Of a stretch of 41,583 nucleotides of DNA, positions 5,164 through 41,583 are shown piece by piece. The notes beneath the pieces were generated by a model that saw only the letters and a program-made list of their open reading frames with translations, ran no database searches and was not told the origin of the DNA. The stretch lies in the NCBI GenBank assembly GCA_015486505.1, contig WFRP01000125.1, positions 1 to 41,583 of the forward strand, given 5' to 3'. The translations under genes were made by a program, and so were the position numbers. Numbering within the stretch: position 1 is the stretch's first letter; each line of letters starts with the position of its first letter. The DNA comes from Pseudomonadota bacterium. Lineage in GTDB: Bacteria; Desulfobacterota; Anaeroferrophillalia; Anaeroferrophillales; Tharpellaceae.

Positions 5164-5400
5164 CTCATGCGGGAACCAACTCCCGCAACCCAAACAGGGC
5201 TTTGTGGCCCGCAAATAAGTACTCTTATCAGAACATTTTCTTGTTTTTTCAAACCGAAAATAACCTGTAAGGTACTAATGCGGGAACAAACCCGCAACCC
5301 AAACAGGGCTTTGTGGCCCGCAAATAAGTACTCTTATCAGAACATTTTCTGATTATTAAATCTTGTTTTTTAGTGCAGAAAATAACCTGTAAGGTACTAA
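5164..5400 (+). repeat. repeat family A, head-to-tail dimer (units 5168-5278 and 5279-5400)
   Basis: TGCGGGAAC...CAAATAAGTACTCTTATCAGAACATTTTCT...AAAATAACCTGTAAGGTACTAA twice, sharing one CTAA at 5275-5278. Confidence 0.95.
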
Positions 5401-5445
5401 AAAACCGGGCCCCTCTAAAGTTATTCAGAGGGGCCCGGTTTCTTT
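5401..5445. terminator. bidirectional intrinsic terminator
   Basis: AAAACCGGGCCCCTCT-loop-AGAGGGGCCCGGTTTCTTT between convergent genes. Confidence 0.85.
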
Positions 5446-7855: not shown

Positions 7856-9124
7856 TTAGAGAATCTCTTCCGGTGTCGCAATCCGGCCTAAAACCGCACT
7901 GGCGGCGGCCACCGCCGGACTGCTGAGATAGACTTCACTTTCAGGATGACCCATGCGGCCGACAAAATTCCGGTTGGTCGTCGCCACGGCGCGCTCGCCG
8001 GCGGCAAGAATCCCCATATGCCCCCCGAGACAGGGGCCGCAGGTCGGCGGTGAAATCAGGGCTTCGGCATCGAGAAAAATATCGGTCAGCCCCTCTTTAA
8101 TCATCTGCCGGTAAACCTCCTGCGTGCCGGGAATAATCATAAGCCGGACAAACCTAGCCGCTTTTTTCCCTTTCAGCAGTTTTGCCGCCAAGCGGAAATC
8201 CTCGATCCGGCCGTTGGTACAGGAGCCGATTACAACCTGATCGATCGCGATATTATCGGCGGCCGCCTGGTCGACGGTACGGGTTTTATCCGGCAGCGGC
8301 GGATAGGAGACCTGGGGCCTGAGTTTACTCACGTCAATTTCAATCGTGCGACAATAGTTCGCATCGGGATCACTGGCGAAAACCGTATAATCCCGCTGGG
8401 CCCGGGGCCTGACATAATCTAAAGTTATCTCATCCGGGGCGATAATCCCGTTTTTGGCCCCGGCTTCAATTGCCATATTCGCCATCGACATACGCCCGTA
8501 CATCGGTAGCGCGGCAATCGTTTCGCCGGTCATCTCCAGCGCCTGATAAAGCGCCCCGTCAACCTTGAGCAAACCGATGGTATGCAAAATCAAATCCTTA
8601 CCCTCAACCCAGGCCGGCAACTCGCCGTGATAAACCACCTTGATTGTCTCCGGGACCTTGAACCAGACCTTGCCGGTCGCCATCGCGGCGGCAAGATCGG
8701 TACTTCCGACCCCGGTCGCAAAAGCCCCTAAAGCCCCATAGGTACAGGTATGCGAATCGGCGCCGATAATCAGATCCCCCGGCCCCACCAGACCCTGCTC
8801 CGGCAAAAGAACGTGTTCGATGCCGACCCGGCCGATTTCAAAATAGTTTTTGAGCTCCTGAGCTTGAGCGAATTCACGCAGGATCTTCGCCTGTTCCGCG
8901 GATTTAATATCCTTGTTCGGGGTAAAATGATCCGGAATCAACAGAACCCTTTTTTTATCGAAAACCTTCTCGACGCCGAGTTTTTCAAACTCGGCAATCG
9001 CGATCGGGGCGGTGACATCGTTGGCCAGCGCGATATCGACATCAGCTTCAATCAGTTGTCCGGGCTCAACCTCTTTGAGACCGGCATGAAAAGCCAGTAT
9101 TTTTTCGGTTATAGTTTGTGCCAC
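7856..9124 (-). CDS. leuC: 3-isopropylmalate dehydratase large subunit
   Basis: [34 protein letters not shown]; GTG 9124 follows an AGGAGG RBS (the longer ORF start runs into a repeat). Confidence 0.95.
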
Positions 9125-9133
9125 AAAATCCTC

Positions 9134-9391
9134 CTGATGCGGGAACAAACCCCGCAGTCCCAAAAAAGTTATCGGCCCGTACCCAGAGGCAATCCGCTGG
9201 TCGCAAATAAGTGCTCTTATCAGAACATTTTCTTGTTTTAAAACAAGAAGATAACCTGTAAGGCACTAATGCGGGAACAAACCCGCAACCCAAACGGAGC
9301 CTTGCGGCCCACAAATAAGTACTCTTATCAGAACATTTTCTGATTATTAAATCTTGTTTTTTGGTACAGAAAATAACCTGTAAGGTACTAA
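9134..9391 (+). repeat. repeat family A, head-to-tail dimer (units 9138-9269 and 9270-9391)
   Basis: two units sharing CTAA at 9266-9269; final CTAA is the reverse complement of the leuA stop. Confidence 0.95.
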
Positions 9392-10920
9392 ACCGTTACC
9401 TGGGGACGGTTGCGTTTTTTGTATTCAAGTTTGTTAAGCGCGTTCATATAGGCCCTGGCGCTGGCGACGACGACACAGGTATGCGCCCCCTGCCCCATTA
9501 CCGTCAGGCCCGCTTCCTTAATCCTGACGGTAACCTCACCCAGCGCGTCCGTCCCCCCTGTAATTGATTTAACCTCATAAGTCAAGAGCCGGCTTTGGGT
9601 ATCGGTTAACCGTTTAATCGTCTTGAAAACCGCGTCAATCGCCCCGTCCCCGAATTCAGCGCCGTGAATTGTCTCACCTCCAATCTCAATCTCCAAAGTA
9701 GCGCTCGGCATCGCCACGGTGCCGCTGTTGACACTGACGAAATTAAGTTTGTAATAGTGGGGAATGCGGATGATCTCATCGGCAATCAACGCGTCGATAT
9801 CCTCGTCAAAAATCTCTTTTTTCTTATCGGCCAGTTTTTTGAACGCGACAAAGGCGGTTTCAATCTGCTCCGAATCAAGTTCGTAACCTAAATCAATAAT
9901 TTTATCCTGAAAGGCGTGGCGGCCGGAGTGTTTGCCCATAACCAGACTGTTCTGCGACAGGCCGATCGATTCCGGTGTCATAATTTCATAGGTCTCTTTA
10001 TTTTTCAAAACCCCGTCCTGATGAATCCCGGCCTCATGCGCGAAAGCATTGGCCCCGACAATCGCCTTATTGGGCTGCACCCGAATCCCGGTCACCTGGC
10101 TTACAAGCCGGCTCGCGGGATAGATCTGCTGGGTAACGATATTGGTCGTATACTTAAGATTATCGGGCCGGGTTCTTAAAGCCATCACCAGCTCTTCCAA
10201 AGATGAATTACCGGCGCGCTCGCCGATACCGTTGATCGTACACTCGACCTGCCGGGCCCCGGCCTCAATCGCGGCGATTGAATTGGCGGTTGCCAGACCG
10301 AGATCATTATGACAATGCACCGAGATCACAACCCCGTCACCACCGTTCGGAAGGCGATTTTTAATCTCATCAATCATCGAGAAATATTCGCGCGGCACCG
10401 TATAACCGACCGTATCGGGAATATTAACGGTTTTGGCCCCGGCCTGAACCACGGCCGTTAAAATCCTGACCAGAAAATCGATGTCGCTGCGGGTCGCGTC
10501 TTCGGCGGAAAATTCAACATTCGAAGTCAAAGTCGAAGCATAGCGCACCGCGGCTACCGCCTGCTCCAGCACGGCATCGGCCTCCATCTGCAATTTATGT
10601 TTCATATGAATGGGCGAGGTCGCGATAAAGGTGTGAATCCGGGGGTCGGCCCCGCCTTTCAAGGCGGCCCAGGCCCGATCGATATCCTTTTGATTGGCCC
10701 GCGCCAGCCCGGCAATCTGGCACTCTTTTATATTATCACTGACCAGTTTAACCCCGGCAAAATCGCCCTCGGAAGCGATCGGAAAACCGGCCTCAATAAC
10801 GTCGACCCCGAGTTTCTCCAACTGCCGGGCCAAGAGTAATTTTTCTTCCACATTCATACTCGCCCCGGGTGATTGTTCGCCATCCCTTAAAGTTGTATCA
10901 AAGATCGTTATCCGGTCCAT
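9388..10920 (-). CDS. leuA: 2-isopropylmalate synthase
   Basis: IFDTTLRDGEQSPG, VHCHNDLG, NGIGERAGN, HEAGIHQDG; C-terminal regulatory domain; AGGAGG RBS. Confidence 0.97.
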   Translation of the reverse strand: MDRITIFDTTLRDGEQSPGASMNVEEKLLLARQLEKLGVDVIEAGFPIASEGDFAGVKLVSDNIKECQIAGLARANQKDIDRAWAALKGGADPRIHTFIATSPIHMKHKLQMEADAVLEQAVAAVRYASTLTSNVEFSAEDATRSDIDFLVRILTAVVQAGAKTVNIPDTVGYTVPREYFSMIDEIKNRLPNGGDGVVISVHCHNDLGLATANSIAAIEAGARQVECTINGIGERAGNSSLEELVMALRTRPDNLKYTTNIVTQQIYPASRLVSQVTGIRVQPNKAIVGANAFAHEAGIHQDGVLKNKETYEIMTPESIGLSQNSLVMGKHSGRHAFQDKIIDLGYELDSEQIETAFVAFKKLADKKKEIFDEDIDALIADEIIRIPHYYKLNFVSVNSGTVAMPSATLEIEIGGETIHGAEFGDGAIDAVFKTIKRLTDTQSRLLTYEVKSITGGTDALGEVTVRIKEAGLTVMGQGAHTCVVVASARAYMNALNKLEYKKRNRPQVTV

Positions 10921-10976
10921 CTTTTCCTCCTGATTAATTATTGTTGTCTGTCTGTCTTGTAACTATTTTCAACCTT

Positions 10977-11025
10977 AAACAAAAAATCCCCCTGAATTCT
11001 GCTTCTGAACTCAGGGGGATTTGCC
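10977..11025 (-). terminator. intrinsic terminator between pssA and leuA (candidate attenuator terminator)
   Basis: transcript AAAUCCCCCUGAGUUC-AGAAGCA-GAAUUCAGGGGGAUUU followed by UUUGUUU. Confidence 0.88.
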
Positions 11026-11130
11026 TATCTTGCGAAAATTTGAAGTCTGCCTTTAGTTGCTGTCTACCGACACACTCTTCTCTTCGGCCCCTTGAGTCCG
11101 TTTTTTTAGTAGTCCGGTTAGCTGTAGCAG
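10977..11130 (-). promoter_or_regulatory. candidate leucine-responsive attenuator using the pssA 3' end as leader
   Basis: CUG CUA CAG CUA ACC GGA CUA CUA codons, then GGACUCAAGGGG complementary (11/12) to the terminator 5' arm, then terminator, then leuA. Confidence 0.55.
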
Positions 11131-11805
11131 GAATTTAACCGGCCCGGAAAATGTGTAAATCAGAGCCAAAGCAAAAAGTGAGATCTGGGGCTCGGCCGCG
11201 ATTACGATAAAAATCACCGCCATCATTACCAAAGCGATAAAAGGGGCCCGGCCGTTGAAAACCGACTCCTTAAATGCCGGATATTTGACATTGCTAACCA
11301 TTAAAAAGGCCAGAACGTAGCAGAGAGCCAGCAGAACCACATTACTTTCAATGCCGGTGGCCCCGAGATGTTCACAGATCAGAACCGTAGTTGCCGCCAT
11401 ACTCGCCGCCGCCGGAATCGGCAGGCCGTTAAAAGTGCCTTTGTCGCTGCTTTCCGCCTGGATATTGTAACGCGCCAGACGCAAGGCCCCGCAGGCGACA
11501 AAAAGAAACGCCGCCAGCCAGCCGAGGCGGCCGTATGAGGAAAGACTCCAGAGAAAGATCAACAATGCCGGCGCCACGCCGAATGAAACCAGGTCGGCCA
11601 ACGAATCAAATTCCATCCCGAAACGGCTGGTCGCGTGCATCATCCGCGCAACCTTGCCATCCAGGATATCAAAAAGATTGGCGACAACCACCGCGGTCGC
11701 TGCCAACGCGAAATCACCCTTGATCGCGGCTATAATCGCATAAAAACCACAAAAAAGATTGCCCATGGTAAAGAGATTGGGCAGCAGATATACTCCGCGT
11801 ATCAT
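11053..11805 (-). CDS. pssA: CDP-diacylglycerol--serine O-phosphatidyltransferase
   Basis: LPNLFT.GNL, FDILDGKVAR, FG.EFDSLADLVSFGVAPA, ALRLARYN, F.GLPIP. Confidence 0.96.
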   Translation of the reverse strand: MIRGVYLLPNLFTMGNLFCGFYAIIAAIKGDFALAATAVVVANLFDILDGKVARMMHATSRFGMEFDSLADLVSFGVAPALLIFLWSLSSYGRLGWLAAFLFVACGALRLARYNIQAESSDKGTFNGLPIPAAASMAATTVLICEHLGATGIESNVVLLALCYVLAFLMVSNVKYPAFKESVFNGRAPFIALVMMAVIFIVIAAEPQISLFALALIYTFSGPVKFLLQLTGLLKKRTQGAEEKSVSVDSN

Positions 11806-11888
11806 GTCGGCCTCCTTCGGGGTGCAAGTATTCGGGGTGCAAACATTAAAGATGTTAAAACCATAATTTACACCGACAAAGTTTTCCT

Positions 11889-12134
11889 GTAACTACTCAG
11901 CCGAATCCGGGGTCGGGCGCGGTTCTTCTCCGCCAGGCGTTAAGATTTCTGTTTTTCCTTACGCTCGCTGCGCCCGCCTTGCAAAACTCGCTTACGCTCA
12001 AACAGTTGCAATGCTAATGGGCTCCCGCTCGCTTCCGAAAAACAACGAAATCGTTTCCGCAACCGCTTACGAAAAGCCACCCCCGCCCCTTCCAGAAGAT
12101 GGGGGGGGGGGGTAAAATTTGGCTGAATAGTTAC
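11889..12134. mobile_element. 246-bp non-autonomous element, family B (IS66-like MITE)
   Basis: TIRs GTAACTACTCAGCC / GGCTGAATAGTTAC; perfect 8-bp flanking duplication GTTTTCCT (11881-11888, 12135-12142); second copy in reverse at 41407. Confidence 0.88.
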
Positions 12135-12150
12135 GTTTTCCTTAACATAT

Positions 12151-12276
12151 TTAGTACCTTACAGGTTATTTTCTGCACCAAAAACAAGATTTAATAATCA
12201 GAAAATGTTCTGATAAGAGTACTTATTTGCGGGTCGCAAGGCTCCGTTTGGGTTGCGGGATCTGTTCCCGCATTAG
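12151..12276 (-). repeat. repeat family A, single copy
   Basis: reverse-complement unit flanked by TTAG on both sides; one flank contains the psd stop codon. Confidence 0.95.
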
Positions 12277-12941
12277 TCAACTATTGGCAAGTATCCAATA
12301 ACAGTCTCTCCGGCTTTAACCTGCTGGCCGACGGCAACATCAATTTCGGTATCCGGCGGTAGATAAAGATCGACCCTTGAGCCGAAACGAATCAGGCCGA
12401 AACGCTCACCTTTTTCGAGGCGGTCGTCAGGTTCGACAAAACAGACAATCCGCCGGGCAATCAGACCGGCAATCTGAGTAAAGGCGATCCGGCGCTTATG
12501 ATCATCCTCAATCACAACCATATTACGCTCATTTTCTTCCGCCGCCTTGTCGAGATTGGCGGAGAAAAATTTCCCCGCTTTATAGTGGATCGCCACAACC
12601 CGGCCGGCAGCCGGTGCGCGATTGACATGAACATTAAACACCGACATAAAAATACTGACTTTAATACTCTCTTTTATCCCGGCAAGCTCCGGCCCGTCAA
12701 CCTCGGCAACCGAAAGCACCCGGCCATCCGCGGGAGAAACCACCGCCCCCTCTTTCAGCGGGACGAAACGTTCAGGATCGCGAAAAAAAGCGCCGCAGAA
12801 AACCGCCAGCACCAGGGTTAACTTCCAGAGCCAGCCCCAGCCCAGAAGAAAAAAGATAATCGTTGCCAGGCCAAAACCAATCACCCAGCGATGACCTTCC
12901 GGGTGAACTTTATCCATAATCGGTAAACTGCTGAATTTCAC
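12273..12941 (-). CDS. psd: phosphatidylserine decarboxylase proenzyme (short type)
   Basis: FFRDPER, SPADG, SIFMSVFNVHVNRAP, QIAGLIARRI and FGSRVD self-cleavage motif. Confidence 0.95.
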   Translation of the reverse strand: MKFSSLPIMDKVHPEGHRWVIGFGLATIIFFLLGWGWLWKLTLVLAVFCGAFFRDPERFVPLKEGAVVSPADGRVLSVAEVDGPELAGIKESIKVSIFMSVFNVHVNRAPAAGRVVAIHYKAGKFFSANLDKAAEENERNMVVIEDDHKRRIAFTQIAGLIARRIVCFVEPDDRLEKGERFGLIRFGSRVDLYLPPDTEIDVAVGQQVKAGETVIGYLPIVD

Positions 12942-12953
12942 TTATTACTCCCT

Positions 12954-13970
12954 TTAGTTTTTTGCCTTATCGACCAACTTGTTTTTACCAATCCAACTCA
13001 TCATCGAACGGAGTTTCGCACCGACCGCTTCGATCTCGTGCTCGGCCCCATTCCGGGTCAAAGCGTTGAAAACCGGACGGTTGGCCTGATTTTCCAGAAT
13101 CCATTCCCGGGCAAACGAACCATCCTGAATCTCGGCCAGGATCTCGGCCATAGCTTCACGGCTCTCTTCATTGATAACCCGCGGCCCCCGGGTCAAGTCC
13201 CCGAACTGGGCCGTATTGCTGATTGAATAGCGCATATTACTGATTCCGCCCTCATAAATCAAGTCAACAATTAATTTCAATTCATGCAGGCATTCAAAAT
13301 AAGCCATCTCCGGAGCATAACCGGCATCGACCAGGGTTTCAAAACCGGCGCGAATCAACTCGGTCACGCCGCCGCAGAGCACCGCCTGCTCACCGAAAAG
13401 ATCGGTTTCGGTCTCTTCCCGGAAAGTGGTTTCAATAATCCCGGCCCGGCCGCCGCCGATGCCGCAGGCATAGGCCATCGCCAGTGCCCGGGTATCTCCG
13501 GCCGGGTCCTGATGCACGGCAATCAAAGTGGGAACCCCCATCCCCTGAGTATATTCATGCCGCACCAGATGGCCGGGGCCTTTCGGGGCCGCCATAAAAA
13601 CATTGACGCCCGCAGGCGGCGTAATCTGGCCGTAATGAATATTAAAGCCATGGGCGAAAGCCAGATAATCACCATCTTCAAGATTGGGGGCGATCTCTTC
13701 ATTATAAAGTTTAGCCTGGAGCTCATCGGGAACCAGAATCATTATTACCTGGGCCTGACGCACGGCTTCGGCGGTTTCAAACAGCGGCAGGCCACCGGTT
13801 TCCGCCTTCTGCCACGAAGGGCCGCCGCGACGCAGGCCAACGATCACATCAAAACCACTCTCTTTCAGGTTATGCGCATGGGCGTGACCCTGGCTGCCGT
13901 AACCGATAACCGCAATCTTTTTCCCCTGCAAAACCGCCGGATTGGAATCTTTTTCATAATAAAGCTGCAT
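12954..13970 (-). CDS. ilvC: ketol-acid reductoisomerase
   Basis: [42 protein letters not shown]; ATG 13970 follows an AGGGG RBS. Confidence 0.97.
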
Positions 13971-14008
13971 AACATTTCCCCTTTTTTCTCTGTAAAAATT
14001 TAGTGTAA

Positions 14009-14219
14009 CTTCCCAGTAACGCCTTGTAACCACTTGAAATTATAAAATTTTTATCTGTGCCTATCCGTGTCCATCTCCATCTATGGTTCAACAAAAAAAT
14101 AGAAACCACAGATGAACGCAGATTAACACAGATTCAGTTCCTCTCACGTTACTTGTATATATGTGGCCGTGATAGCGGTCTGGGATGCTTCCAAGTAACG
14201 CCTTGCAAACACCTGAAAT
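14009..14219. repeat. 32-bp imperfect direct repeat pair (14009-14040, 14188-14219)
   Basis: CTTCCCAGTAACGCCTTGTAACCACTTGAAAT vs CTTCCAAGTAACGCCTTGCAAACACCTGAAAT, 28/32 identical. Confidence 0.8.
14053..14133. repeat. repeat family C: inverted arrays of a 10-bp unit (degenerate copy)
   Basis: ATCTGTGCCT ATCCGTGTCC ... ATCTATGGTT / AACCACAGAT GAACGCAGAT TAACACAGAT. Confidence 0.8.
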
Positions 14220-14351
14220 CAATCAAGTTTCACGAATTATCTAACATAGGTACAATCTGTCGAAACCTTTTTTGACCTCTTTTTTCTCACGTCTCCGCGC
14301 CTTTTGCGCGAGATAAAAGTAATTTTTGCGCAGAAGCTTTTAACCACGTCG

Positions 14352-14837
14352 TCAATTTTTGCCGTCGCGGGCCAGGGCAACCATACCGGTCCGTGACATC
14401 TCTTTAATCGCAAACGGCGCCAGCACTTCGAGTGCGGCTTCAATCTTCGCCCGTTCTCCGGTCAGCTCAACTATCAGTGAGCGCACCCCGAGTTCCAGGA
14501 CCCGACCCTGATAGACCTCAACCAGGCGCAGCAGTTCAAGCCGCTTGGGCCCGCTGTTAACGGCAAACTTAAGCAGCACCATCTCCCGGGACATCTGGAC
14601 CGACTCAGTCAATTCAACCACTTTTATCACATTGATCAATTTATTGAGCTGTTTGGTAATCTGCTCAATAATATGATCATCACCAATAGTAACAATGGTC
14701 ATATTGGAAATCGATTTATCTTCAGTTTCGGCGACGGTTAAACTTTCAATATTAAAGCCGCGGCCGCTGAAAAGGGAAGCGATGCGGGAGAGGACCCCGA
14801 ACTCATTCTCAACCAGAACACTGATAATATGTTTCAT
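14352..14837 (-). CDS. ilvN: acetolactate synthase small subunit
   Basis: MKHIISVLVENEFGVLSRIASLFSGRGFNIESL ACT domain; EQITKQLNKLINV; start set at ATG 14837. Confidence 0.95.
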   Translation of the reverse strand: MKHIISVLVENEFGVLSRIASLFSGRGFNIESLTVAETEDKSISNMTIVTIGDDHIIEQITKQLNKLINVIKVVELTESVQMSREMVLLKFAVNSGPKRLELLRLVEVYQGRVLELGVRSLIVELTGERAKIEAALEVLAPFAIKEMSRTGMVALARDGKN

Positions 14838-14850
14838 CTTAAAAAACCCC

Positions 14851-16548
14851 CTATACCAGCAACATATTCGAGATGGCTTCACCGGCAGGCACCATCGGAT
14901 AAACATTCTCTTCCGCCGCAACGACAATATCAACCACGACCGGCCCGGGATGAGCAAAAGCCTCTTTTAAGACCGGCTCAACCTCCGCCGGCCGGGTCGC
15001 CCGCAGGCCCAGCGCCCCGTAGGCATCCGCCAGCTTGACAAAATCAGGCGCGTGATCCATCGTTGTCGCCGAATAATGCTTGTCAAAAAAGAGTTCCTGC
15101 CATTGGCGCACCATTCCGAGATAGCCGTTATTTAAAATAATTACCTTAACCGGCAGATTATACTGCACCACGGTTGCCAGCTCCTGGCTGTTCATCTGGA
15201 TACTGCCGTCACCGGCGATATCAATTACCAGACGCTCCGGGAAAGCAACCTGGGCCCCCATCGCCGCCGGCAATCCGTAACCCATAGTCCCGAGGCCACC
15301 GGAAGTCAGCCAGCTGCGCGCCTGCGTAAAGGTAAAAAATTGCGCCGCCCACATCTGATTCTGGCCCACCTCGGTGCTGATAATCGGATTTTTACCGGCA
15401 GTTAATTCATCGATCTTTTCCACGACAAATTGCGGTTTGATAATCTCATCCTGCTGATAAGAGAGTTTATGCTGATCGCGCCAGCGGGCAATTTCTTCAA
15501 GCCAGGCATTATGGCCGGCACTGCAGGCTTTAGCCTTGGCCGGAGCCGACTTGACCAACTCCAGCATTTTACCGAGAACATCAGTGATATCACCGACGAT
15601 CGGAATATCGACATCGACATTCTTGCTGATCGAGGTCGGATCGATATCGACATGGATTATCTGGGCATCGGCGGCAAACTCATCAATCCGGCCGGTAACC
15701 CGGTCATCAAAACGGGCTCCTAAAGCGACCAGGACATCACTTTTGGTAACCGCCATATTGGCCCGATAGGTCCCATGCATCCCCAGCATCCCCAACGAAA
15801 GCGGGTCATCCTCCGGAAAAGCCCCAAGCCCCATCAGCGTGGTTGTTACCGGGATCTGCAAGGCCCGGGCAAGCTCCGTAAGTTCTCGCGCGGCATTGCC
15901 CAGAACCACGCCGCCGCCGACATAAAAAACCGGTTTTTCGGCCTTAAAAATTACCTCCATCGCCCGCTGAATCTGCCCGGGATGACCGGCATAATTAGGA
16001 TTATAGCCTTTAAGCTGAGGTTTGGTCGCGACTTTTTTAGCACATTTTCCAACAATCACATCTTTCGGCAGATCAATCAAGACCGGCCCCGGTCGGCCGC
16101 TGCCGGCGATATGAAAGGCCTCATTTATTATACGTTCAAGATCTTCAACCCGCTTAACGAGAAAATTATGTTTGGTACAAGGCCGGGTAATGCCGACAAT
16201 ATCGGCTTCCTGGAAGGCGTCATTGCCAATCAACGGCGTCGGCACCTGGCCGCTAAAAACCACCAGCGGAATCGAATCCATCGAAGCGGTCGCCAGCCCG
16301 GTAACCGTATTGGTCGCGCCCGGTCCGGAAGTCACCAGAGCGACCCCGATTTTACCGGTTGCCCGGGCATAGCCGTCAGCAGCATGCACGGCCGCCTGTT
16401 CGTGCCGCACGAGAAAATGACGGCAGGAGTAATCCGGCAGACAATCGTAAAGGTTAATTACCGCCCCCCCGGGATAACCGAAGATAACCTCGACTCCCTG
16501 CTCCTGCAAAACCTCAAGCAGTATCTGCGCTCCACTCATCTCTTTCAT
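14851..16548 (-). CDS. ilvB: acetolactate synthase large subunit
   Basis: [41 protein letters not shown] and GDGS...NN ThDP motif. Confidence 0.97.
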
Positions 16549-16650
16549 AATCTTTCTCCTGAAATTAAATTAACCTTGACCCTGTCGAATCACTTGCGAA
16601 AATCACGGCAATCCTGAAATACTTCTCGCTAAAAAACACCTCACTAAAAA

Positions 16651-17697
16651 TCAAGGCAGCAATGAAACCGTTGTAAGCCCGGCTCTTTCCGGCAGGCCCA
16701 GCATTAGATTCATATTCTGCACCGCCTGCCCGGCGGCCCCTTTAACCAGGTTGTCGATTGCCGAAAATAAAATCAGGCTCTGTTTATCCGCGGCCAGCAC
16801 ATAGCCGATATCGCAATAGTTGCTGCCCCGAACCCCGTTTAAGGTCGGCAGGACACCGGCCGGCAGCAGCCGGACAAAGGTTTCCGCGGCATAAGCCTGA
16901 TGCAGAGCGTCTTCGATTTCAGCCGCAGTAACCTCCCGGGACAACGGCAGATAGATTGAAGAGAGAATCCCCCGGTTAACCGGCAGCAGATGCGGTACAA
17001 ACAGAAGTCGTGGAGCGCTGCCGGCAACCCGTTCAAGTTGTTCGACCATCTCCGGCTGATGCCGGTGGTTACCGGCTTTATAGGGTTTAAAGCTCTCATT
17101 AACTTCACAATAAAGTGAGCCCAGATTAAGGCCGCGGCCCGCCCCGCTGGTACCGGATTTGGCATCAATGACAATGGTTGCCTGACGTTCAATCAGATTA
17201 AGCGGCAAAATCGGCGCCAGCGGCAGAATGACACTGGTGGGATAGCAGCCGGGATTGCCGACAATCCGGGCTTGAGGAATTTCTGCGCGGAAAAGCTCCG
17301 GTAAACCATAAACCGCTTTTCCCAGCAATTCCGGCCGGGTATGCGGTTGATACCAGCTCTCGTAGAGCTTAAGATCGCGAAAACGGTAATCGGCACTTAA
17401 ATCAACCACTTTCTTCCCGGCCTGATAAAGTTCGGCCACAACCTCGATTGCGGCTTTATGCGGCAGCGCCGTAAAAACCAGATCGGCCATATCTGCAATC
17501 TTATCGACCTGATTATCAATAAATTTAAGCTCGACTATCTCCCGTAATGATGGGAAAAGCTCGGTTACGGCTACTCCGATATGCTGGCGCGAGGTAACCG
17601 CGGTCAACTCAACCCCGGGATGGCCCGCCAGAATTCGCATCAGCTCAACCCCGGTGTAACCACTGGCACCAATAATCGCTACTTTAGTTTTTGCCAC
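16651..17697 (-). CDS. argC: N-acetyl-gamma-glutamyl-phosphate reductase
   Basis: IIGASGYTG, DLSADYR, NPGCYPT, SGTSGAGR, IDNLVKGAAGQAVQ. Confidence 0.97.
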   Translation of the reverse strand: MAKTKVAIIGASGYTGVELMRILAGHPGVELTAVTSRQHIGVAVTELFPSLREIVELKFIDNQVDKIADMADLVFTALPHKAAIEVVAELYQAGKKVVDLSADYRFRDLKLYESWYQPHTRPELLGKAVYGLPELFRAEIPQARIVGNPGCYPTSVILPLAPILPLNLIERQATIVIDAKSGTSGAGRGLNLGSLYCEVNESFKPYKAGNHRHQPEMVEQLERVAGSAPRLLFVPHLLPVNRGILSSIYLPLSREVTAAEIEDALHQAYAAETFVRLLPAGVLPTLNGVRGSNYCDIGYVLAADKQSLILFSAIDNLVKGAAGQAVQNMNLMLGLPERAGLTTVSLLP

Positions 17698-17729
17698 AAT
17701 CTTCTCCTTATCCCACCTTCCCGGAAACG

Positions 17730-17760
17730 AAAAAAAGGAGACCGTTTTCGCGGCCTCCCT
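17730..17760 (-). terminator. intrinsic terminator after rpsI
   Basis: transcript GGAGGCCG-CGAAAA-CGGUCUCC followed by a U7 tract. Confidence 0.8.
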
Positions 17761-17792
17761 CTATTGTAAGTCTTTCTTTAACCAGATTCGAT

Positions 17793-18185
17793 TTAACGTT
17801 TCGAGAACTGGTAGCGAGCCCGGGCACCACGTTGACCGTATTTTTTACGCTCCTTAATTCGCGCATCACGGGCAAGAAAGCCAGCCTTTTTTAGGACGCC
17901 GCGGAGTTCGGGATCATACTCCTGCAGGGCTTTACTGATACCATGTTTAACCGCACCGGCCTGACCGGAAACCCCGCCGCCGATAACCTTGATCATAAAA
18001 TCAAACTTATTATTACATTCAGCTACGGCCAGCGGCTGAAAAACCATCTCCCGGGCAATATCCATAGTAAAATAGTCTTCAACGCTGCGGCCGTTAACCT
18101 TAATTTCGCCACTGCCCTCACTCAACCAAACCTTGGCGATAGCTGATTTTCTTTTTCCGGTCGCGTAAAACCTTGTCGCACTCAT
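17793..18185 (-). CDS. rpsI: 30S ribosomal protein S9
   Basis: YATGKRK, GGGVSGQAGA, ERKKYG...AR...QFSKR. Confidence 0.98.
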   Translation of the reverse strand: MSATRFYATGKRKSAIAKVWLSEGSGEIKVNGRSVEDYFTMDIAREMVFQPLAVAECNNKFDFMIKVIGGGVSGQAGAVKHGISKALQEYDPELRGVLKKAGFLARDARIKERKKYGQRGARARYQFSKR

Positions 18186-22772: not shown

Positions 22773-22911
22773 CCAATGCGGGAACAGATCCCGCAACCCA
22801 AAAGAAAGTTATTGGCCCGCACCCAGGGGCACTTCCGCTGGTCGCAAATAAGTACTCTTATCAGAACATTTTCTTGTTTTTTCAAACCGAAAATAACCTG
22901 TAAGGTACTAA
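22773..22911 (+). repeat. repeat family A, single long copy
   Basis: CCAA-TGCGGGAACAGATCCCGCA...CCTGTAAGGTA-CTAA. Confidence 0.95.
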
Positions 22912-23536: not shown

Positions 23537-23665
23537 CTAATTCGGGAACAAATTCCCGCAACCCAAAAGAAAGTTTTCGGCCCGCAAATAAGTACTCTTA
23601 TCAGAACATTTTCTGATTATTAAATCTTGTTTTTTTGGTGCAGAAAATAACCTGTAAGGTACTAA
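23537..23665 (+). repeat. repeat family A, single copy
   Basis: flanked by CTAA on both sides (23537-23540, 23662-23665). Confidence 0.95.
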
Positions 23666-28287: not shown

Positions 28288-28440
28288 CTAATGCGGAAAC
28301 AAATTCCCGCACCCCAAAAGAAAGTTTTCGGCCCGTACCCCAAGGGCAATCCGCTGGTCGCAGATAAGTACTCTTATCAGAACATTTTCTGATTATCAAA
28401 TCTGGTTTTTTGGTGCAGAAAATAACCTGTAAGGTACTAA
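28288..28440 (+). repeat. repeat family A, single long copy
   Basis: flanked by CTAA on both sides (28288-28291, 28437-28440). Confidence 0.95.
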
Positions 28441-28570
28441 ATATATGAAATTAGCTTGATTTTTTATATTAAAGGAGTTATGTATAGTGCATCAGACACT
28501 GTTTTAAAATGTTCTGGTATTAATTAAGCACTTGTTTAACCTTCAACAATCACCGAAAAAGGAGTCCCAA

Positions 28571-29133: not shown

Positions 29134-29272
29134 TTAGTACCTTACAGGTTATTTTCGGTTTGAAAAAACAAGAAAATGTTCTGATAAGAGTACTTATTTG
29201 CGACCAGCGGAAGTGCCCCTGGGTACGGGCCGAAAAGGCCTGTTTGGGTTGCGGGATTTGTTCCCGCATTAG
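29134..29272 (-). repeat. repeat family A, single long copy
   Basis: reverse-complement unit flanked by TTAG on both sides. Confidence 0.95.
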
Positions 29273-30244: not shown

Positions 30245-30396
30245 TTCGTACCTTACAGGTTATTTTCTGCACCAAAAAACAAGATTTAATAGTCAGAAAA
30301 TGTTCTGATAAGAGTACTTATTTGCGACCAGCGGAAGTGCCCCTGGGTACGGGCCAAAAAAGCCCGATTGGGTTGCGGGATCTGTTCCCGCGTTAG
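30245..30396 (-). repeat. repeat family A, single long copy
   Basis: reverse-complement unit, flanks TTCG / TTAG. Confidence 0.93.
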
Positions 30397-41406: not shown

Positions 41407-41583
41407 GTAACTATTCAGCCACCCCCCCCACCTTCTGGAGGGGACGGGGGTGGTTTTTCGTAAGCGGTTGCGGAAACGATTTCGTTGTTTTTCCCAGCGA
41501 GCGGGAGCCCATCAGCATTGCAACTGTTTGAGCGTAAGCGAGTTTTGCAAGGCGGGCGCAGCGAGCGTAAGGAAAAACAGAAA
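41407..41583 (-). mobile_element. family B IS66-like MITE, truncated by window end
   Basis: starts GTAACTATTCAGCC; closely matches the reverse complement of ~11947-12134. Confidence 0.88.

Follow-up and report, generated by a model that had tools for sequence, protein, structure and literature searches.

Contig WFRP01000125.1 of assembly GCA_015486505.1, analysed over its whole length of 41,583 nucleotides (the window), comes from a bacterium of the family Tharpellaceae, class Anaeroferrophillalia, and carries on its minus strand the genes ilvB, ilvN, ilvC, psd, pssA, leuA, leuC and leuD, in that order. Here we consider the junction between pssA and leuA, where the gap between the two genes is 132 nt. 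An earlier note, made from the letters of this DNA, had proposed that the C-terminal end of pssA acts as the leader of a leucine attenuator for leuA, with ribosomes that finish the upstream gene sensing the charging of Leu-tRNA. The elements of this candidate device are a cluster of CUA codons and a putative antiterminator strand, both inside the pssA coding sequence, a hairpin that spans the pssA stop codon, and an intrinsic terminator in the gap. Their coordinates are given in Table 1 together with those of the neighbouring genes.

Candidate control codons, terminator and putative antiterminator at the end of pssA

The pssA gene contains 35 Leu codons, of which the first 31 are CUG, UUG, CUC, CUU or UUA and the last 4 are all CUA. 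Its tail reads CUG CUA CAG CUA ACC GGA CUA CUA AAA AAA CGG ACU CAA GGG G... and ends with a UAA stop (11055-11053), so that the CUA cluster stands between a CUG (codon 226) and a pair of Lys codons (11106-11101). No sense codon of the genome is rarer than CUA, which makes up 1.58% of Leu codons (1.72 per 1000 codons; 1178 long open reading frames [ORFs]); the genome has a single gene for tRNA-Leu(UAG), its Leu isoacceptors being five in number and all single-copy. In the seven remaining genes of the cluster, CUA accounts for 3 of 206 Leu codons. When all six frames of the whole genome were scanned in eight-codon windows (1,444,269 windows; open frames 100 or more codons long), at least three CTA were found at 8 places, and four only in the pssA tail. 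Assuming independent codons, a run of 5 Leu codons would contain four or more CUA with a probability of about 3e-7. Two other clusters seen in the genome were discarded: a CUA-rich site on contig C95, which has a short codon string in common with the pssA tail, lies in an A+T-rich gene and is unrelated, and a CTA cluster on contig C67 lies in a glyA-like gene but not in its reading frame.

pssA ends 31 nt before the stem of the terminator, which has 16 pairs (7 G-C), a 7-nt loop and a folding energy of -22.8 kcal/mol. Its stem is the longest of the 19 terminator-like sites found in 9000-17800, a region whose shuffled versions gave 12.6 ± 3.6 sites. The 12 loop-proximal nucleotides of the terminator 5' arm (11018-11007) can alternatively pair with the segment at 11099-11088 in the pssA tail, so that one strand is common to both helices. 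This second helix has 11 of 12 positions paired, one A.C mismatch and an RNAduplex energy of -17.0 kcal/mol, and its site was the best of 1436 upstream 18-nt windows for pairing with the terminator arm (z -4.7). The gap holds no Leu-containing short ORF, either within it or overlapping it; only three ORFs, 6-14 codons long and starting with GTG or TTG, lie in or over it, and none contains a Leu codon. Together, these counts and searches reproduce what the earlier note had read from the sequence, namely the 35 Leu codons with only the last four CUA, the 16-bp terminator with its U tract between the two genes (11022-10977), the 11-of-12 pairing and the lack of a separate leader ORF, and they bear out the rarity of CUA, for which it had suggested a genome-wide frequency count.

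A promoter of leuA's own downstream of the terminator, which in the earlier note's terms would have spoken against an attenuator, was considered and rejected. No promoter-like site was listed in the window between 10977 and 10920. In the 23 loci of the class in which the distance could be taken, the U tract and the leuA start codon are separated by 24-457 nt (median 60), and in 5 of the 23 the spacing to the ATG is only 24-44 nt, ribosome-binding site (RBS) included. Such a distance is too short for a promoter followed by an RBS-bearing leader, so leuA must there be read through the terminator.

Table 1. Features of the ilv-psd-pssA-leu cluster and of the pssA-leuA junction, and T-boxes found at the same junction in outgroup loci (outgroup coordinates refer to the loci named)
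Feature	Coordinates	Strand	Basis or remarks
argC-like gene, semialdehyde-dehydrogenase family, before ilvB	16651-17697	minus	PF22698
ilvB	16548-14851	minus	ORF and Pfam
ilvN	between ilvB and ilvC in the listed cluster order	minus	ORF and Pfam
ilvC	14033-12954	minus	ORF and Pfam
psd	12941-12273	minus	ORF and Pfam
pssA (CDP-diacylglycerol-serine O-phosphatidyltransferase family)	11805-11053	minus	250 codons and stop; Pfam CDP-OH_P_transf PF01066, E 5.6e-26
CUA cluster	11127-11107	minus	codons 227 (11127-11125), 229 (11121-11119), 232 (11112-11110), 233 (11109-11107)
Antiterminator 5' strand (putative)	11099-11088	minus	inside pssA codons 236-240; complement of terminator 5' arm 11018-11007
Spacer hairpin	11086-11033	minus	minimum free energy (MFE) -15.3 kcal/mol, z -2.38
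Intrinsic terminator stem-loop	11022-10984	minus	5' arm 11022-11007, loop 11006-11000, 3' arm 10999-10984
Terminator U tract	10986-10977	minus	six U, one G, three U
leuA RBS	10930-10926	minus	GGAGG; sequence
leuA (2-isopropylmalate synthase; putative regulated gene)	10920-9388	minus	Pfam HMGL-like, HCS_D2, LeuA_dimer
leuC	9163-7856	minus	ORF and Pfam
leuD	7815-7312	minus	ORF and Pfam
asd-like gene, semialdehyde-dehydrogenase family, after leuD	7193-6168	minus	ORF and Pfam
Outgroup T-boxes	L126:2352-2652, L131:1996-2281, L136:2385-2759, L146:2397-2751		93-115 bits (gathering score 93)

Conservation within the class

We compared the junction across the 27 genomes of the class, which consists of uncultured vent bacteria; 25 of the genomes gave a locus with a complete pssA 3' end (the window and 24 others; one genome, G008, had no match and in another, G011, the gene runs into the contig end). 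A scan of metagenomes added 3 further class members, all near-identical to genomes already in the set; close relatives bear the name Candidatus Tharpella, which the passages available from PMC9213671 describe from vent sediments. The pssA orthologues of the 24 other loci are 66-93% identical, and psd-pssA-leuA synteny is kept in 23 of the 25 loci, the other two ending at a contig edge before leuA. All 25 carry the CUA cluster, the terminator and a complement of the terminator 5' arm within the pssA coding sequence, and in all 25 the hairpin with its U tract ends 55-76 nt after the pssA stop (for L017 and L019 after manual re-anchoring of the terminator). In L012, the stretch from the terminator to leuA contains about four 7-nt repeats in tandem.

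The codon bias is confined to the tail, taken as the last 30 codons of pssA, when this is compared with the rest of pssA plus psd and leuA. Within the genus, 60 of the 85 Leu codons of the tail are CUA, as against 23 of 1214 elsewhere; the corresponding values are 8/17 and 0/250 in the other genera of the family, and 11/45 and 5/532 in the second family. The Leu positions that bear CUA differ between species, and since the number of CUA is kept while the positions vary, selection appears to act on the number and not on a fixed sequence. Synonymous diversity along pssA, with a mean of 0.464 in 18 sequences of the family, reaches its twelve lowest 8-codon windows within codons 222-245 and its ten lowest (0.17-0.29) within codons 227-245, that is, over the CUA cluster and the antiterminator codons.

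Directly after the last CUA lies an in-frame A_AAA_AAA heptamer (11101-11107, minus strand), which we take to resemble the -1 frameshift site of dnaX. Such a heptamer, mostly A_AAA_AAG, occurs in 12 of the 15 genus loci and in no locus outside the genus. Frameshifting into the -1 frame, by which ribosomes would be carried through the terminator, was rejected as a chance feature because that frame stays open (55 codons) in only one of the 12 heptamer loci, the window genome; it closes after 6-14 codons in the 11 others.

For each locus we also searched approximately 1430 nt upstream with the locus's own terminator 5' arm as the query. The best complement fell at the same position, 22-36 nt before the pssA stop, in 23 of the 25 loci, and in the remaining two (L015 and L019) this conserved site ranked second. 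Cognate duplexes between tail and arm have energies of -13 to -26 kcal/mol. Tails of the genus reach about -17 kcal/mol with genus arms and -9 to -12 with second-family arms, whereas second-family tails reach -13 to -21 kcal/mol with arms of their own family and -8 to -13 with genus arms; the tail of L016 pairs at -26 kcal/mol with its own arm and at -12 with genus arms. The A.C mismatch is retained in the genus and in L016 and becomes an A-U pair in L017. Sequence comparison indicates that the antiterminator segment changes together with the terminator arm between clades. In RNAalifold predictions on per-family alignments, the antiterminator helix is the consensus structure of both families when the RNA is cut after the 5' arm, and the terminator is the consensus at full length. 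The earlier note had named a lack of conservation of CUA cluster and antiterminator among syntenic relatives as one outcome that would refute its proposal; both were present in every locus, and the segment tracks the changes in the terminator arm between clades.

Part of this pattern would also be expected if the terminator were an ordinary, leaky, operon-internal one that lowers leuA, leuC and leuD relative to ilv, psd and pssA, with the CUA codons and the complement kept for co-translational handling of the PssA C-terminus, for mRNA stability or by shared ancestry. Intrinsic terminators are common inside operons, Leu residues 226-233 are indeed conserved at the protein level, and both the low number of independent compensatory changes and the weak consensus energy of a naive alignment (see below) agree with it. 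Protein constraint, however, leaves unexplained why the rarest synonymous codon stands at 60 of 85 sites, and outgroup PssA tails also have Leu residues, with CUA at 0 of 29. Nor does a leaky terminator account for the low synonymous diversity over the antiterminator codons or for the best complement to each locus's own arm at the same place in 23 of 25 loci. We therefore regard it as quite unlikely.

Alternative folds and the position of the ribosome

Between the two strands of the putative antiterminator lies a single spacer hairpin. Its 5' strand consists of the purine-rich last codons of pssA, with the stop codon near the apical loop, and its 3' strand of U-rich non-coding sequence, which is followed by a 13-nt A-rich single strand (11032-11020). 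When the spacers of 20 of the 25 loci were folded (five near-duplicates were left out), one long imperfect hairpin was predicted in all 20, starting within a few nucleotides of the antiterminator strand, and all z-scores were negative (-0.64 to -4.39, mean -2.3, 14 at -2 or below). When transcripts were truncated behind the 5' arm, all 12 folds placed this hairpin inside the antiterminator helix, and the two strands are therefore structurally adjacent despite the approximately 65-70 nt between them. With the 3' arm added, 10 of the 12 folds switch to the terminator. The earlier note had considered that a distance of about 70 nt makes the timing uncertain; the concern over distance is eased by the hairpin that fills the gap, while the timing relative to the polymerase stays a matter of prediction. 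A rough findpath estimate of the barrier from antiterminator to terminator gave 13.3 kcal/mol in the window and 7.4-16 kcal/mol in 8 of 11 loci, suggesting that the antiterminator could persist while the polymerase passes.

The spacing of the elements was examined with respect to the ribosome, whose footprint extends about 12 nt ahead of the A site. The four CUA of the window lie 10-28 nt upstream of the antiterminator strand, and across loci the distance from the nearest CUA to the start of the pairing is 8-23 nt, being 10 nt in most of the genus. With a spacing of about 10 nt and such a footprint, a ribosome waiting at CUA would leave the antiterminator strand free or nearly so. Equilibrium folds in which the ribosome footprint was masked keep the 5' arm paired to the antiterminator strand until the polymerase has reached about 10980, whether there is no ribosome or one stalled at codon 227 or 232; with a ribosome placed on the antiterminator strand, the 5' arm is free and the terminator then forms. 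No conserved upstream partner for the antiterminator strand (an anti-antiterminator, or 1:2, helix) was seen in the per-family consensus structures or in the truncated folds.

From these elements, with their conservation, codon bias, covariation and folding energetics, we infer the following sequence of events, in which ribosome stalling, its timing relative to the polymerase and the response to leucine are predicted steps. The last 25 or so codons of pssA would serve as the leader, with no leader-peptide gene of its own. RNA polymerase leaving pssA would meet the strong terminator before leuA, and the spacer hairpin, made of the last pssA codons and the U-rich spacer, would hold the antiterminator strand and the 5' arm close together. 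If the antiterminator formed as the 5' arm emerged, the terminator could not nucleate and leuA, leuC and leuD would be transcribed. Under scarcity of charged Leu-tRNA(UAG) a ribosome would stall on the four CUA codons, leaving the antiterminator strand free and allowing read-through; with leucine plentiful it would run over the antiterminator strand and the spacer hairpin to the stop, unwinding both, and transcription would terminate. Termination at sufficiency might come about through the bulk of a ribosome in the loop melting the scaffold hairpin, through trailing ribosomes or through a polymerase pause released by the ribosome, and the spacer hairpin could itself be a pause hairpin. Since no 1:2 partner was found, the predicted default without translation is read-through, which is the opposite of classical attenuators.

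Several results weigh against this interpretation. Its weak point is the state at the stop codon: the antiterminator strand lies 21-35 nt upstream of the stop, so a terminating ribosome leaves the strand uncovered, and masking the footprint of a ribosome at the stop does not keep the predicted fold from forming the antiterminator. Termination at leucine sufficiency would hence rest on steric or kinetic effects or on polymerase pausing. The full-length MFE structure stays with the antiterminator in L017 and L018, and the findpath barrier is at most 2.7 kcal/mol in L016-L018. In the second family the antiterminator is short (6-8 bp), G+C-rich and partly self-complementary, and the tail contains only 1-2 CUA codons. 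The independent compensatory events are few, numbering about 3 (genus versus L016, first versus second family and, weakly, L018), and the changes in L017 are only wobble-compatible. A naive MAFFT/RNAalifold analysis of all 25 sequences recovered only 5 pairs (consensus energy -0.68 kcal/mol), and in 2 of these both partners had changed; this alignment is weak because indels shift the register between clades, and covariation was judged by the duplex energies of each locus and by the per-family alignments, not column by column on the naive alignment. Finally, no convincing second device of the same design was recognised in the genome by two crude and noisy scans, one of which combined a terminator with an upstream complement and runs of codons (it gave 281 candidates), and the other looked for a terminator after clusters of rare codons. 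Among sequencing runs recorded as RNA, none was listed for 10700-11500.

The folding results bear equally on a sensor of translation coupling that lacks leucine specificity. Such a sensor would report a close-following ribosome, and hence general starvation or slow translation, with the CUA codons acting as a constitutive slow patch that sets basal read-through. The alternative structures and the masked folds respond only to where the ribosome is, a rare codon slows ribosomes even when its amino acid is plentiful, and the second family manages with just 1-2 CUA codons, all of which would fit. What has been kept ahead of a leucine-specific gene, however, is CUA and not rare CCA, AGG or CGA, and the number of CUA is maintained while their positions change. 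The same junction, moreover, bears a T-box in other lineages, which is leucine-specific in Geobacter according to the available passages of PMC2700814. On these grounds a leucine-unspecific sensor seems improbable, though of the alternatives it is the one that we would give the most weight.

The reading of the pssA C-terminus as the leader of a leuA attenuator, as put forward in the earlier note, agrees with every comparative test available, and we conclude from sequence comparison and modelling that the junction probably works as a ribosome-mediated leucine attenuator before leuA. It seems, on balance, that the whole class of 27 genomes regulates leucine synthesis by an attenuator that has no leader gene, with pre-existing Leu residues of the tail synonymously recoded to the rarest codon, the antiterminator strand placed in the next five codons and a hairpin laid over the stop.

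Outgroup loci and known systems

A T-box or other known RNA family at the site was considered and rejected. A search for T-boxes (Rfam RF00230) gave no match at the gathering threshold in the window, and with the limit relaxed to E 10 the region 10700-12000 still had none; the window's own genome and the 27 genomes of the class were likewise without one, and no other Rfam family matched in the window or in 9 class loci. The same search does detect T-boxes in outgroups. Among six outgroup metagenome loci with a long pssA-leuA gap, all with psd upstream, four carry a T-box between pssA and leuA (Table 1), and the other two (L130 and L153) gave no T-box match at the gathering threshold. CUA is used at 0 of 11 tail Leu codons in the four T-box loci and at 0 of 29 in five outgroup loci with a short pssA-leuA gap. 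A further outgroup locus, L029, with a gap of 127 nt, contains a long inverted repeat built of repeated short units and has neither a CUA cluster nor a T-box match. According to passages of PMC2700814 and PMC2494555, a Leu T-box precedes leuA in Geobacter and Pelobacter. Judged from these loci, the pssA-leuA junction is a putative control point for leucine that recurs across lineages.

These T-boxes lend some colour to a third alternative, that a trans-acting factor (uncharged tRNA-Leu, acting much as in a T-box, or else an RNA-binding protein) binds the stretch of CUA repeats and stabilises the antiterminator with no need for ribosome stalling. CUA triplets are complementary to the UAG anticodon, and conservation over 11127-11088 is at the nucleotide level. 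The triplets, however, are in frame in a translated coding sequence, from which ribosomes would displace a bound factor, and from species to species they are displaced in steps of whole codons, as would fit decoding and not a fixed binding site. Considering also the lack of any Rfam match in the window and 9 class loci and of T-boxes in the 27 genomes, we hold this to be very improbable.

The outgroups also answer a further suggestion of the earlier note, that the device explains why psd and pssA sit inside the ilv-leu cluster. This did not stand: outgroup loci keep psd-pssA-leuA with a T-box and without the CUA cluster, and the gene order thus predates the device or is independent of it.

Around the junction, the ilv-psd-pssA-leu cluster is flanked on either side by a gene of the semialdehyde-dehydrogenase family (asd-like and argC-like), and leuD has no adjoining leuB. 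The psd-pssA gap (11806-12272) and the leuA-leuC gap (9164-9387) consist of dispersed intergenic repeats of at least two units (about 123 and 246 nt) with 90-98% identity. Further copies lie at approximately 5181-5401, 22777-22911, 23581-23665, 28359-28444, 29134-29268, 30248-30391 and 41422-41583, and the two gap sequences gave 4433 BLAST hit lines over the contigs of the genome. The psd-pssA gap is only about 70 nt in relatives, so that some 400 nt of repeats have been gained inside the operon by the window genome; the stretch from the antiterminator to the terminator is free of inserted repeats. The repeat-derived psd-pssA gap includes 12 consecutive C (approximately 12101-12112, minus strand), which could be a slippage-prone homopolymer or a weak point of the assembly.

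If the attenuator reading is right, a coding sequence can carry a whole switch, with its control codons, one strand of the antiterminator and half of the scaffold hairpin, and the switch would be visible as a local collapse of synonymous variation. Amino-acid attenuators could then hide in the 3' ends of normal genes, beyond the reach of searches limited to 5' leaders and short ORFs, and attenuator surveys may be missing a class of operon-internal devices. In open-access papers and bioRxiv preprints, supplements aside, we found no description of a leuA attenuator embedded in pssA or of a comparable internal attenuator. Ribosome-mediated attenuation is, in its textbook form, defined by a dedicated leader peptide in the 5' leader. 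What is likely to be new here is that the part of the sensor falls to the end of a complete and unrelated enzyme gene within an operon, as its sequence indicates.

The enterobacterial leu attenuator (LeuL) has the same clustered rare CUA codons and the same choice between antiterminator and terminator before leuA, with stalling being a prediction in our case. It differs in having a dedicated leader ORF of 14-30 codons in the 5' leader, whereas the CUA codons here belong to an enzyme gene of 250 codons within the operon, where they lie among codons 227-233. Its antiterminator strand lies downstream of the stop codon, and here it lies upstream; attenuators of that type have a 1:2 anti-antiterminator, whereas none was found here, the predicted untranslated default is read-through and Rfam returned no match. 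At pyrE, a close-following ribosome prevents the terminator by reaching the adjoining stop codon, and the signal is UTP-dependent pausing of the polymerase. That logic, known as rph-pyrE, is excluded here by distance: in each of the 25 loci, 29-46 nt separate the pssA stop from the start of pairing in the 5' arm, and a ribosome terminating there could not mask the arm. The predicted logic is in fact the opposite, in that a stalled ribosome would lead to read-through, the signal would be a codon cluster and a separate antiterminator helix would intervene. The system is still the nearest precedent for a full-length gene as leader, since in Escherichia coli the ribosome on the full-length upstream gene decides termination at the intercistronic attenuator (passages of PMC2784333, citing Bonekamp et al. 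1984), and the upstream coding sequence supplies the ribosome in both cases. As for the codon itself, control by CUA has been proven for the leu attenuator of Salmonella (passages of PMC1183508, citing Carter et al. 1986).

The leucine-rich attenuator peptide of the Staphylococcus aureus ilv-leu operon (PMC5794164) is likewise ribosome-mediated, uses Leu codons and serves branched-chain amino acid genes; it is a separate short peptide upstream of the operon, whereas here the end of a full-length gene would take that part. The Leu T-box of Geobacter and Pelobacter (passages of PMC2700814 and PMC2494555) shares the pssA-leuA junction, the regulated gene and conditional intrinsic termination governed by Leu-tRNA charging, the last being predicted for our locus. 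The T-box binds tRNA directly through some 220-300 nt of non-coding RNA, whereas the gap here is 132 nt and the predicted sensor is the translating ribosome. The junction would thus offer a natural comparison of two solutions, a T-box and a codon-based attenuator, at the same pssA-leuA boundary in related lineages.

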